64,000 bases of DNA from Gammaproteobacteria bacterium (GCA_021773275.1 JAJFKJ010000053.1:63421-127420); one strand, 5' to 3'. Positions 50,800 to 53,504 are shown, counted from the first letter of the stretch. A program made the numbers and translations. Notes: generated by a model not told the origin, from the sequence alone.

Positions 50800-50803
50800 G
50801 TAC

Positions 50804-51091
50804 TTAACTTTCGTAGATATCTTTCCGGTGCTTGATTGCTATGATAATCACTGTATGTTTTTCGATATTGATATTATAAACAATGCGATAATGACTAACC
50901 CTTAAACGCCGATAGCCTTTTAAACTATAACGCAGTGGCTTGCCAAAGCCAATGGGGTCTAGTGATAGGCGTTGTTCAATTGCTTTTCTGATAAGAACTT
51001 TTGCTGATTTGTTTAAAGCAGGTATATCTTTTTTGACAACGGTTTTATGGTATTTAATGTTGTAAGGCTTATTCGTCCCAAGCTTTGTCAT
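50804..51091 (-). CDS. Type II toxin, RelE/ParE superfamily.
   Basis: A 95-aa ORF with YRIVYNINIEKHTVIIIAIKHRKDIY, a typical RelE/ParE C-terminal core. It overlaps the upstream antitoxin gene by 23 nt. Confidence 0.75.
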   Translation of the reverse strand: MTKLGTNKPYNIKYHKTVVKKDIPALNKSAKVLIRKAIEQRLSLDPIGFGKPLRYSLKGYRRLRVSHYRIVYNINIEKHTVIIIAIKHRKDIYES

Positions 51092-51296
51092 GGTTAATCA
51101 ATCCTTTGTTTGCATCTTTATCTCTGAGTTCAGCAAGGTTTGATAAAAGGATGTCTTCTCTACGTTCTAGAGCATCGAGTATCAATTGCTTTGTTAGACT
51201 GGAAACAGAGAGATTTTCTTGTTCTGCAAGATCAGACAATACATCCGCTGTGGCTGGGTCAACAGTGATATTGATGCGTGGATTCTGTGTAGGCAT
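51069..51296 (-). CDS. Type II antitoxin, ribbon-helix-helix / RelB-ParD-like.
   Basis: A 76-aa protein, MPTQNPRINITVDPATADVLSDLAEQENLSVSSL, with a GAGGAG RBS. It lies directly upstream of and overlapping the toxin. Confidence 0.7.
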   Translation of the reverse strand: MPTQNPRINITVDPATADVLSDLAEQENLSVSSLTKQLILDALERREDILLSNLAELRDKDANKGLINHDKAWDE

Positions 51297-51648
51297 ATTA
51301 TGATCTCCTCTATATTTTATAGTGTAACACTTTTGCATCATTATGCAAAGCTTAAATCTAGCCAAAATACTCATTGACAGCTCAGTTAAGCCAGGTTATA
51401 GTTAATCATCAGTAATTAGTATTAGGTCAAAAAGACATGTTTAAAAGTTTCCAAAAACGACATCAAGGGCATCGACGCGTTAAGTAACGCTTTGATTTAA
51501 TTGGTTTTATCGTTTTTTCCTGGAGACACAACATGCAAATTTTCACTTCCCTTGTCCACCGACATCATCACCGTCATGCACGACGAAAATCGTGATTTAT
51601 TGTTGTTATTTTGTTAGAATGTTTACTGAAATTTAAGGGTGATGAGAG

Positions 51649-53484
51649 ATGGGATTAAGAGATTTAATAGTTGATGGTGTTGCGCAGGCTCGTGGCGCCG
51701 CAGCTGCTGTATTAGAGTGGTCAGGCTTGATGGCCTCAGCTCCTGCTTCTGCAAATGGGGCAGACACTCCTGCGCCTAGCGTACAAGGCCAGCTTGAAAC
51801 AGAAGAAGAGAGAAAAGCTAGGGAATTGGCAGCAGCGAAACAAGCGCTCAGAGAAAAAAGACAAACCATAGAAGCAGAGTTTAAAAAACTTCTCGAAAAC
51901 GAAGAAGAGCTAGACGAAGGTGATTCAAGAAAACAAGCTATCGCACTGCTTAATCTGGCTTCCTATTTGCAAGACATTATTAACAGCGGTATAGCAGAAG
52001 ATGATGAAGTAAGAAAAGCTCAAAGCGCCTTACAAAGAATCCGTAAAAACATTCAAGTTAGAGATGCAATCAATGACGGTTCAGAGAACGATGCCAAAAT
52101 ATACGGTATTTTAACCGCCATTGCCATGCTCGGCTTTTTCTTCATGTTAATGGGTATGCACAATATTGATTGGTCGAGCACATCCAGCATCTTGCAAGGT
52201 TTCATGGAACTCAGTGCCCAAGAAGGAGTCATGATTGCTGCTGCGTTTATACTGGCGCCCATTATTCTAATGAGTTCAGCATTATTGAATTTTCGTTTGA
52301 TGCGGATTTGCATGGCCAAACAAAACCAAAGGGTTTTAGACCGTGAGCACAAGGATCTCGACCACGCTTGGAAGTTAAAGTTAGCTAGAGCTGCAGCATT
52401 CAGTGGCGCTGCACTGATGACCTTCTTTGTAGGCTTGGGTATTTTTGAAGTCTTTGAGGCTTTTGCCAACACATCAAACGTATGGGTGTTAGCGCCTGCC
52501 GCTGCATTTGCTTTTTTAGTATCAGCAGCATTTATTGGCAGACAAGAGTATAACCTCAATCTTGATGCCAATATAAACTTGCTTAAGCAGTTCAGCGCCA
52601 ATAGAAAAGATGGTAAGGGATTTTTTGCAAGCCTCATGCTTCCCAATTCATTTTGGTTGAAGATGGCAGAAAAATTCGGGATCAGAGATCTTGATGTTTG
52701 GAAGCAAAATGAAAATTACAATAAGCTCTGGTGGACTTTCTTTGCTTACTTTGGTATTGCGGTTGCTGGTACCATGGGTTTGGCATACGTTGGTTTGCCT
52801 GCGCTTTCTGGTTATATAGGCGATGCTCTTGGTAGCAGTGAGTTTGGCTGGTTCGCATCAATTATTTTGTTGAGCATAGGTTTTGTTTGCGGCATTGCAT
52901 TTTACCGTGATAAAGCGCAGTCTATGGTTGAAGCAAAAGCAGATGAGCTAGCGCCACCGCCTGCAGTGGCTGCTGCCGCACAGCTAGCGAATGACCAAGA
53001 TTTCGAAGATAAGCACTTTAACAAAGCACGTGGTGTAAATGCTGCCGTTAATGGTATTCCAACGGTGCTGACTGTATTCGGCTTGAGTAATATTGCTGTG
53101 ATGGATTTCATTAGAGAGGATTTTTGGACTGGTGATATGGGCGGCAATGATTTTTATGCAGAATTTAGCTTGGTAATGGTAGCAGCATTCTTGCTTACAG
53201 CCGCAGCAATCATTACTTCGTGGACTGCGGGGGCGGATAAAAATCCTGAGGCATTGTCTACATCGGGTGCGGCGGAAAAAATGGATAGCAATTTTGTGAG
53301 CTCGAAAGGCACTTCGCAGCCTCTGTACAATTACAGACCCGGCTACAGTAATGAAGTGCGTGAAGTTTCTGGCCTTGGCGGCGGCTTGGGCCTTGGTAAA
53401 GAGTTTGCATGTAACTACAGATTGCCTAAAGAATATAAAGCTGATCTAGATGCAGTAACACCAATGGCACTAAAAGCCTCATAA
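51649..53484 (+). CDS. Hypothetical 611-aa polytopic membrane protein, lineage-specific; candidate effector.
   Basis: It has a charged, coiled-coil-like N-terminus of about 140 aa, then eight or more hydrophobic helices and a Gly-rich C-terminal region. I see no recognisable family. Confidence 0.5.
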   Translation: MGLRDLIVDGVAQARGAAAAVLEWSGLMASAPASANGADTPAPSVQGQLETEEERKARELAAAKQALREKRQTIEAEFKKLLENEEELDEGDSRKQAIALLNLASYLQDIINSGIAEDDEVRKAQSALQRIRKNIQVRDAINDGSENDAKIYGILTAIAMLGFFFMLMGMHNIDWSSTSSILQGFMELSAQEGVMIAAAFILAPIILMSSALLNFRLMRICMAKQNQRVLDREHKDLDHAWKLKLARAAAFSGAALMTFFVGLGIFEVFEAFANTSNVWVLAPAAAFAFLVSAAFIGRQEYNLNLDANINLLKQFSANRKDGKGFFASLMLPNSFWLKMAEKFGIRDLDVWKQNENYNKLWWTFFAYFGIAVAGTMGLAYVGLPALSGYIGDALGSSEFGWFASIILLSIGFVCGIAFYRDKAQSMVEAKADELAPPPAVAAAAQLANDQDFEDKHFNKARGVNAAVNGIPTVLTVFGLSNIAVMDFIREDFWTGDMGGNDFYAEFSLVMVAAFLLTAAAIITSWTAGADKNPEALSTSGAAEKMDSNFVSSKGTSQPLYNYRPGYSNEVREVSGLGGGLGLGKEFACNYRLPKEYKADLDAVTPMALKAS

Positions 53485-53504
53485 TTTAATGTTACAATGT
53501 TGAG

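Follow-up and report, generated by a model that had tools for sequence, protein, structure and literature searches.

Between amiB and mutL in a 64,000-nucleotide (nt) stretch of gammaproteobacterial DNA (GCA_021773275.1, JAJFKJ010000053.1:63421-127420; the whole stretch is called the window here) lie about 2.7 kb that hold a toxin-antitoxin pair on the minus strand and, on the plus strand, a gene for a membrane protein of 611 amino acids (aa). An initial annotation had read this interval as one horizontally acquired islet in which the pair stabilises the membrane protein as its cargo. We propose instead, with a probability of about 0.7, that the interval is made up of two elements that differ in age. 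The pair would be a recent, self-contained insertion, present in the window genome only and functionally unrelated to the membrane gene, and the latter would be an old, clade-specific gene. What looks like a toxin-antitoxin module with its cargo would then be a recent insertion beside an old, position-fixed gene, and adjacency to such a pair should not be taken as evidence of shared mobility. The pair itself is routine. Mildly new are a five-member family among about 15 billion proteins, each member locked between amiB and mutL and predicted to be cytoplasmic except for short turns, and a leader with one or two tiny His/Arg-rich, CGA-using open reading frames (ORFs), a candidate leader-peptide switch that would also govern mutL in this clade.

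The amiB-mutL interval and its two elements

The genes around the locus lie on one strand in the order nnrD-tsaE-amiB-...-mutL-miaA-...-hfq-hflX-hflK, which is the order and orientation of the gammaproteobacterial amiB-mutL-miaA-hfq-hflX superoperon. Unlike the usual superoperon, the clade of the window has fixed extras, namely the membrane gene at the amiB-mutL junction and a GerE regulator with a 477-aa and a 798-aa protein at the miaA-hfq junction. Via MutL we retrieved at least 80 gammaproteobacterial loci for comparison, in 76 of which both AmiB and MutL were found. Among the matches listed for these 76 loci, the median distance from the end of the AmiB match to the MutL match is 40 bp, the gap is 150 bp or less in 65, and a gap on the kilobase scale occurs only in locus L001 (3,067 bp). 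This distribution shows that the interruption of the window's amiB-mutL junction is real and unusual. Together with the Pfam matches of the flanking genes, the survey bears out the roughly 2.7-kb break in the tsaE-amiB-mutL run that had been noticed initially, and the toxin, antitoxin and 611-aa ORFs are all present in the ORF listing where they had been placed. In an independent Logan assembly of run SRR15505519, 1,879 bp agree with the window (49804..51682) at 100% identity; they cover the 3' end of amiB, the toxin-antitoxin pair with both junctions, the leader and the beginning of the membrane gene. That a second assembly reproduces the junctions speaks against a chimeric assembly.

Searched exhaustively with HMMER, 1.84 billion representative sequences yielded three homologues of the 611-aa protein: P0006 (609 aa, 40% identity, E 6.9e-92), P0007 (577 aa, 27%, E 1.1e-18) and P0008 (549 aa, 24%, E 3.7e-12). 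Comparison of profiles adds a 594-aa protein of L001 as the fourth (97.8%, E = 1e-12, with 290 columns aligned); BLASTP aligns it to the window protein with 24% identity over 267 aa. The five members are singletons: in a collection of about 15 billion sequences, each forms a cluster of its own. A fast word-index search of proteins that started from the 611-aa sequence or from the family profile returned the query itself only, scans of metagenome contigs with a two-sequence family alignment found nothing, and nothing credible was obtained for the 611-aa protein from Pfam, NCBIfam, PADLOC, PHROGs or the PDB profile search. The initial description of the protein as belonging to no known family is thus correct for curated libraries, but HMMER and profile comparison do place it in a family.

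Every family member lies between amiB and mutL, and in the related genomes the toxin-antitoxin pair is missing there. Locus L081, from a JGI metagenome, reads tsaE-amiB-(609 aa)-mutL-miaA-GerE-487-790-hfq-hflX. In L082/L083 (GCA_964443025.1) the order is amiB-(577 aa)-(549 aa)-mutL, the two copies being tandem paralogues with 47% identity. L001, the closest GTDB representative among the matches listed (MutL 51%), has amiB-(330 aa)-(594 aa)-mutL; its 330-aa hydrophobic protein (7039..8031) was considered as a further family member and proved unrelated on comparison. The distance from the membrane gene to mutL is 20 nt in the window, 16-17 nt in both L081 and L082, and 179 nt in the most distant of the genomes. 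The membrane proteins of the window and L081 share 36-40% identity, compared with 66-87% for the flanking housekeeping proteins, and by this measure the membrane protein evolves at about three times the rate of its neighbours. Its gene has a GC content of 44.3%, the whole window 43.9%, and the GC content at third codon positions is host-like as well. Position and divergence across the clade point to an old, fast-evolving gene that is fixed in place: a lineage-specific gene would have entered the amiB-mutL junction long ago in an uncultured gammaproteobacterial clade. It is kept clade-wide in the genomes compared here, which in part goes against the initial annotation by that annotation's own measure; conservation across the order as a housekeeping membrane protein, the case that the initial annotation had set against its own proposal, was not seen.

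The extent of the cassette follows from the spacer between amiB and the membrane gene, which measures about 105 bp in L081, 75 bp in L082 and 574 bp in the window. The cassette begins 1 nt past the end of amiB, and in the spacer alignment homology to L081 resumes at about position 51330, directly before the palindrome TTGCATCATTATGCAA. Its GC content of 36.4% is 8-11 points lower than the 44-47% of its neighbours. No target-site duplication and no terminal or notable flanking direct or inverted repeats were found at the cassette, the window ORF listing contains no integrase or transposase ORF, and no RNA gene was found. The pair is absent from L081, L082/L083 and L001, so that a single gain in the lineage of the window is more parsimonious than three losses. 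Both the low GC content and the absence in relatives fit horizontal acquisition of the pair, and on this point the first reading holds. A compact bicistronic cassette of a ribbon-helix-helix (RHH) RelB and a RelE would have landed in the spacer of about 100 bp between the amiB stop and the promoter of the membrane gene, pointing back toward amiB. The toxin stop lies 4 nt from that of amiB, and the two convergent stops make a perfect palindrome, TTAAGTACTTAA (50796..50807). Read-through from amiB in the window would now have to cross the convergent cassette. There is no terminator between amiB and the toxin, and transcription of amiB and of the pair may interfere.

Table 1. Features of the amiB-mutL interval and its surroundings. 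Positions refer to the window unless another locus is named; SD, Shine-Dalgarno sequence; uORF, upstream ORF.
Feature	Position	Strand	Basis and remarks
amiB (N-acetylmuramoyl-L-alanine amidase)	49357..50799	+	left flank; Pfam AMIN, Amidase_3 and LysM; C-terminus intact
Putative inserted toxin-antitoxin cassette, ~530 bp	50800..51330		right edge about ±10 bp; DNA alignment with L081 and L082
RelE/ParE-superfamily toxin, probably of the RelE/StbE type, 95 aa	50804..51091	-	Pfam, PDB profile, relatives
Probable RHH (RelB/DUF6290-like) antitoxin, 75 aa	51069..51296	-	sub-cut-off profiles; 58-59% identity to partner antitoxins
Perfect palindrome TTGCATCATTATGCAA	51333..51348		upstream of the membrane-gene promoter; native; similar palindrome TTGCATATAAATATGCAG in L081
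Sigma-70-like promoter TTGACA-17-TATAGT	51374..51402	+	11/12 matches; kept in L081 and L082
Leader	51374..51648		L081 9710..10000; L082 6487..6650
uORF1 MFKSFQKRHQGHRRVK	51437..51487	+	MLNSLRKRHHEHRRVK in L081, MLNSLRKRHHHTHRRSK in L082; contains the predicted anti-SD strand GTTTCC (51447..51452)
Small hairpin GCGTTAAGTAACGC, then T-rich tract	51477..51490	+	over the uORF1 stop; terminator- or pause-like; conserved in L081, weaker in L082
SD GGAGA	51522..51526	+	precedes uORF2
uORF2 MQIFTSLVHRHHHRHARRKS	51533..51595	+	MLTFTTQAILLIFVHRHHHLHGRRKRRV in L081; 18-nt indel in frame (two genomes)
Second hairpin CACGACGAAAATCGTG	51579..51594	+	terminator-like; over the 3' end of uORF2
Membrane protein, 611 aa, clade-restricted family	51649..53484	+	ORF listing, HMMER family, hydropathy
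mutL	53505..55166	+	right flank; Pfam-confirmed; 20 nt past the membrane gene
miaA-hfq block	56124..60432; L081 14535..18866		111-aa GerE/LuxR regulator on the minus strand, then 477-aa and 798-aa proteins without Pfam family

The toxin-antitoxin pair

The toxin matches Pfam PF05016 over residues 24-93 with 35.7 bits (cut-off 23, E = 1.3e-8), in agreement with its first description as RelE/ParE-like. It reaches 25.6 bits against TIGR02385 RelE_StbE, slightly below the cut-off of 27.9, and matches a RelE-like toxin among the PHROGs at 7.6e-18. Its nearest solved relatives are Rv2866 of Mycobacterium tuberculosis (1.4e-9) and RelE, which are toxins of the RelE and not the ParE type. More than 1,367 relatives were found at E <= 1e-5, of which the best 120 are 60-74% identical, and many carry the source name RelE/StbE mRNA interferase. 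When the toxin is aligned with 17 relatives and with E. coli RelE, residues K58, R69, R89 and Y93 vary little or not at all. They stand opposite K54, R61, R81 and Y87 of what we take to be the E. coli RelE sequence, and the register agrees with the match to PDB 4fxe_D, in which query residues 53-93 correspond to RelE 44-87. A toxin without the conserved catalytic residues would have spoken against the initial annotation; the basic residues and the tyrosine of the RelE type are kept. Plasmid-borne relatives include those of Wolbachia, Arsenophonus and Paracaedimonas, with a Wolbachia plasmid giving the best plasmid match (47%), and the RelBE subfamily of the window toxin seems to be common in host-associated bacteria. 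In locus L086 (1172..3432), a toxin relative with 72% identity and its antitoxin adjoin a 588-aa ankyrin-repeat protein.

Antitoxin and toxin genes share 23 nt, and a GAGGAG ribosome-binding site lies 8 nt upstream of the antitoxin ATG (51296). The antitoxin ORF is nested in a longer one of 101 aa that runs to 51374. Against family profiles the antitoxin scores 23.7 for DUF6290 (cut-off 27), 20.8 for RHH_5 (26), 19.7 for RHH_1 (20.5) and 24.4 for NF046040 RelB (50); it matches the Arc repressor in the PDB with E = 0.88 and an Arc-like repressor of the PHROGs with 1.8e-3. On the two contigs that were examined, the toxin relatives P0020 and P0010 each follow an overlapping 73-aa gene that has a similarly weak DUF6290/RHH_5 signal. 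These partner antitoxins are 58-59% identical to that of the window and share its N-terminus MPTxNPRINIT, which shows that the 75-aa start is right and not that of the 101-aa ORF; the 75-aa product is also the form on record in the sequence database. A tblastn search with the antitoxin against plasmids gave no match. Coordinates, ribosome-binding site and the conserved pairing in relatives confirm the antitoxin that had been described, including its overlap with the toxin, and the profile matches, consistent with one another though below their cut-offs, point to the RHH type.

Judged by its sequence, the pair is an ordinary, intact type II toxin-antitoxin operon, in which the antitoxin would neutralise a ribosome-dependent mRNA-cleaving toxin and repress its own promoter. 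Like the RelBE modules of E. coli (RelE) and M. tuberculosis (RelG/Rv2866-RelF, PDB 3g5o), it has a RelE/ParE toxin of about 95 aa with a C-terminal KHRxDIY and Arg, Lys and Tyr positions of the RelE type, as well as a bicistronic operon of overlapping genes that begins with a small DNA-binding antitoxin. Unlike the E. coli RelB fold family, the window antitoxin scores, below the cut-offs, as RHH/DUF6290 type, and its toxin, known here from sequence alone, has low identity to the solved RelBE toxins. A further difference from typical RelBE modules is the wedging of the cassette against a convergent housekeeping gene.

Promoter and leader of the membrane gene

The initial annotation described a 270-bp AT-rich region between the pair and the membrane gene. 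The region exists, but alignment with L081 and L082 identifies it as a conserved promoter and leader rather than a spacer. Its sigma-70-like promoter is the only strong promoter-like site in 50600..53600, and L001 has an equivalent, TTGACT-16-TATAGT. Counted from the -35 element up to the ATG of uORF2, DNA identity is 86.5% to L081 and 78% to L082; for comparison, coding DNA is 76% (L081) and 72% (L082) identical in amiB and 75% in mutL. The leader is thus the best-conserved DNA of the locus, above the flanking coding DNA. The palindrome upstream of the promoter (TTGCAT-N4-ATGCAA) is present as a single perfect copy in the window, without enrichment. It is possibly a regulator site and may supply the -35 element of a toxin-antitoxin promoter on the opposite strand.

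Start and stop of uORF1 are common to three genomes, and the lone indel, of 3 nt, is in frame. In L082, the SD and ATG of uORF2 start the membrane protein itself. Both uORFs are rich in His and Arg, a composition that is found nowhere else in the loci, and five of their seven Arg codons are CGA, a codon that accounts for 11% of Arg codons across 33 of the window's housekeeping genes. Single-sequence folds from three genomes pair the uORF1 codons GTTTCC.AAAACGA with TCGTTTT..GGAGAC and bury the downstream SD. A search of Rfam with the leader gave no family match, even at E <= 1, and a scan of metagenome contigs with the leader DNA pattern found nothing.

From these features a leader-peptide switch by translational attenuation of the ermC or SpeFL type is plausible. 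The coding strand of uORF1 would pair with the next SD and gate expression of the membrane gene, and a ribosome that translates uORF1, or stalls at its His and rare CGA Arg codons, would open this SD, with pausing prolonging the effect. The leader ORF of SpeFL, an ornithine-sensing arrest peptide, contains rare Arg codons, and its 3' end is covered by a hairpin (bioRxiv 10.1101/604074). The window leader resembles SpeFL, the his operon leader and ermC-type leaders in its tiny conserved ORF rich in His and rare Arg codons; a hairpin covers the end of this ORF as in SpeFL, and its coding strand is predicted to occlude the downstream SD, as in leader-peptide attenuators. It has no sequence homology to SpeFL or HisL, no Rfam family and no covariation support; two genomes have two tandem uORFs and the third has one, and the regulated gene would be that of a membrane protein, followed by mutL. 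The membrane gene would be transcribed from its own near-consensus promoter, with transcription running on into mutL. Since the gap to mutL is so short, in L081 and L082 as well as in the window, and no terminator was found in it, mutL probably shares the transcript that starts at the leader-controlled promoter.

Sequence features of the membrane protein

Hydropathy predicts eight transmembrane (TM) segments arranged as four hairpins (151-169/194-212, 248-266/278-296, 366-386/400-418 and 470-488/506-524), which settles the count that had been given as eight or more. The charged N-terminal region that had been described is present as a helical part of about 150 aa, and the C-terminal tail has 87 aa. 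In all five family members, the loops within the hairpins (1-2, 3-4, 5-6 and 7-8) have 2-24 aa with 0-2 Lys/Arg, and the loops between them (2-3, 4-5 and 6-7) have 35-69 aa with 5-13 Lys/Arg. By the positive-inside rule, loops rich in Lys and Arg are cytoplasmic. This rule and the alternation of loop charge predict that both termini are inside: the N-domain and the C-terminal tail would be cytoplasmic, as would the three large, basic loops, and only very short turns periplasmic. The conserved motifs lie in the predicted cytoplasmic parts and comprise NRKxGKG..SFW, FYRDRA, RxxNAxxxIP and, in the C-terminal tail, CNY..EDF..DL..V. A comparison of sub-alignments with hhalign did not detect an internal duplication of the four hairpins. 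A Foldseek search of an AlphaFold2 model against the PDB gave no match at E <= 0.001, with all TM-scores at or below 0.15.

Because of its long fixation in a housekeeping operon and its strongly hydrophobic segments, our best guess is that the protein is a resident of the inner membrane, an anchor or scaffold that acts at the cytoplasmic face.

Discussion

Several results weigh against the account given above. The history of the locus was reconstructed from four related genomes, all metagenome-derived, and is to be read as that of a small sample. The family matches of the antitoxin all fall under the curated cut-offs, and the consensus scan of 50600..53600 yielded no promoter for the pair. The AlphaFold2 model of the membrane protein, computed from a four-sequence alignment, is unreliable (pLDDT 44.8, pTM 0.30). 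In the leader, the predicted fold does not exceed shuffled sequence in stability (z = -0.47), none of 27 consensus pairs shows a compensatory change among the three sequences, and four of these pairs are broken in L082. Conservation at the nucleotide level could also mean a protein-binding site or RNA element rather than coding uORFs.

This last point leads to a possible, though tentative, alternative, that the conserved region is an element for protein or small RNA binding or a plain 5' untranslated region, with small ORFs that are not translated and no attenuation. It would agree with the high nucleotide conservation even at synonymous positions, the many non-synonymous substitutions in uORF1, the hairpin without covariation and the lack of an Rfam family. 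On the other hand, frames, starts and stops have been kept in three genomes despite in-frame indels of 3 and 18 nt, the His/Arg-rich composition recurs in the two uORFs only, and a good SD precedes uORF2 and serves, with the same ATG, the main gene in L082.

Rather unlikely, in our view, is that the membrane protein is a translocated effector that passes through an inner-membrane intermediate and is then extracted and injected into a eukaryotic host, where it would reside in host membranes like the transmembrane-domain (TMD) effectors of the Legionella type IVB secretion system or the chlamydial Inc proteins. The Legionella TMD-effectors are reported to insert first in the inner membrane with both termini inside and very short periplasmic loops (PMC11602083), a pattern that the predicted topology of the window protein matches. 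Like the Dot/Icm effectors SidF and LegC3 and the Inc proteins, the protein has hydrophobic hairpins with tiny far-side loops, places both termini and its large domains on one face (PMC11602083), evolves fast and is confined to a single lineage. Its tandem duplication in L082, a conserved C-terminal tail that is acidic and rich in small residues, the many window proteins without Pfam family together with a Sel1-repeat protein among housekeeping genes, and the frequency of toxin relatives in host-associated bacteria would also suit an effector. However, 81% of scored Legionella TMD-effectors have one or two TM segments (PMC11602083), so that eight, in four hairpins instead of one, are atypical. 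No secretion-system gene, dot/icm included, was found among the scanned ORFs of the window or in the related loci. The tail shows no clear E-block, with D at -11 and -13 and E at -17. There is no homology to any known effector, neither in sequence nor in fold, and the gene is hard-wired in a housekeeping operon directly upstream of mutL. A resident protein therefore remains our preferred reading. The most far-reaching version, that the five proteins are founding members of a new multi-hairpin family delivered from the inner membrane into eukaryotic host membranes and switched on by an undescribed tandem His/Arg-rich arrest-peptide leader that senses amino-acid supply or a small ligand, strikes us as improbable. 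If true, uncultured gammaproteobacteria of this clade would have a host-sensing effector module built into one of their housekeeping operons.

With regard to the pair, it is very unlikely that it was ancestral at the site and lost in the relatives instead of gained in the window. Toxin-antitoxin modules are easily lost, and the comparison is limited to four relatives, but an ancestral pair would have to be lost cleanly and independently at least three times where a single gain suffices, the nearest relative by housekeeping identity (L081) is without the pair, the spacers of L081 and L082 contain no toxin-antitoxin remnants, and the GC content of the pair differs clearly from that of its neighbours. 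Hardly credible any longer is the initial model of a single horizontally acquired 2.7-kb islet in which the pair stabilises an effector, transporter or defence cargo: adjacency, the low GC content of the pair and the orphan status of the membrane protein in curated libraries speak for it, but pair and membrane gene are separable in the synteny of relatives, where the gene occupies the same site without the pair in L081, L082/L083 and L001, the gene is host-like in GC content and third codon positions and owns a conserved promoter and leader, and the interval has no mobility genes, no flanking repeats and no PADLOC match for the membrane protein.

Neighbouring genes and wider window

Window AmiB is 83% identical to its orthologue in L081, 73% to that in L083 and 62% to that in L001, and the alignments begin at residue 52-55. 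The listed ORF starts with a GTG at 49357 and encodes 480 aa, about 50 N-terminal residues more than the orthologues of 440-469 aa would suggest, so that the real start is probably further downstream.

The miaA-hfq block is shared with L081, with identities of 64% for the GerE regulator, 41% for the 477-aa and 45% for the 798-aa protein; L001 is without it and has hfq directly after miaA. Being common to the window and L081, the block is old and not a recent insertion. The proposal that the superoperon is an insertion hotspot in this genome is therefore largely not sustained, since the older genes at both junctions are shared with relatives; what stands is that gene content differs between members of the clade, and by comparison of their sequences the superoperon appears to have gained different lineage-specific genes in different members. 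L001 has a 477-aa orphan of its own on the minus strand between mutL and miaA (11661..13094), which was compared as a possible counterpart of the window's 477-aa protein and is unrelated to it. The 798-aa orphan (58036..60432) gives a weak match to a prokaryotic Argonaute (pAgo) model of PADLOC over residues 38-273 (E = 1.9e-5, 21.6 bits), without a Pfam PIWI or other domain, and this match is probably spurious. In GCA_964443025.1, a HipB-HipA toxin-antitoxin module, HipB being of the helix-turn-helix type, lies beside psd in the same conserved block (L082 874..2326), which indicates insertion of a different toxin-antitoxin module at a different spacer; the hflK/hflC/purA/hflX part of this genome is inverted or rearranged.

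Elsewhere in the window, sizeable proteins without Pfam family are encoded at 478..1872, 15714..16520, 18073..19164, 27813..28991, 36533..38443 and 39731..43885, one of 1,384 aa among them, and the Sel1-repeat protein lies at 25282..26259. In these orphans and the Sel1-repeat protein the window resembles host-associated, effector-rich bacteria. A MutH homologue is encoded at 4458..5126 (PF02976, 6.2e-31), and the organism appears to have MutH-type methyl-directed mismatch repair alongside mutL.

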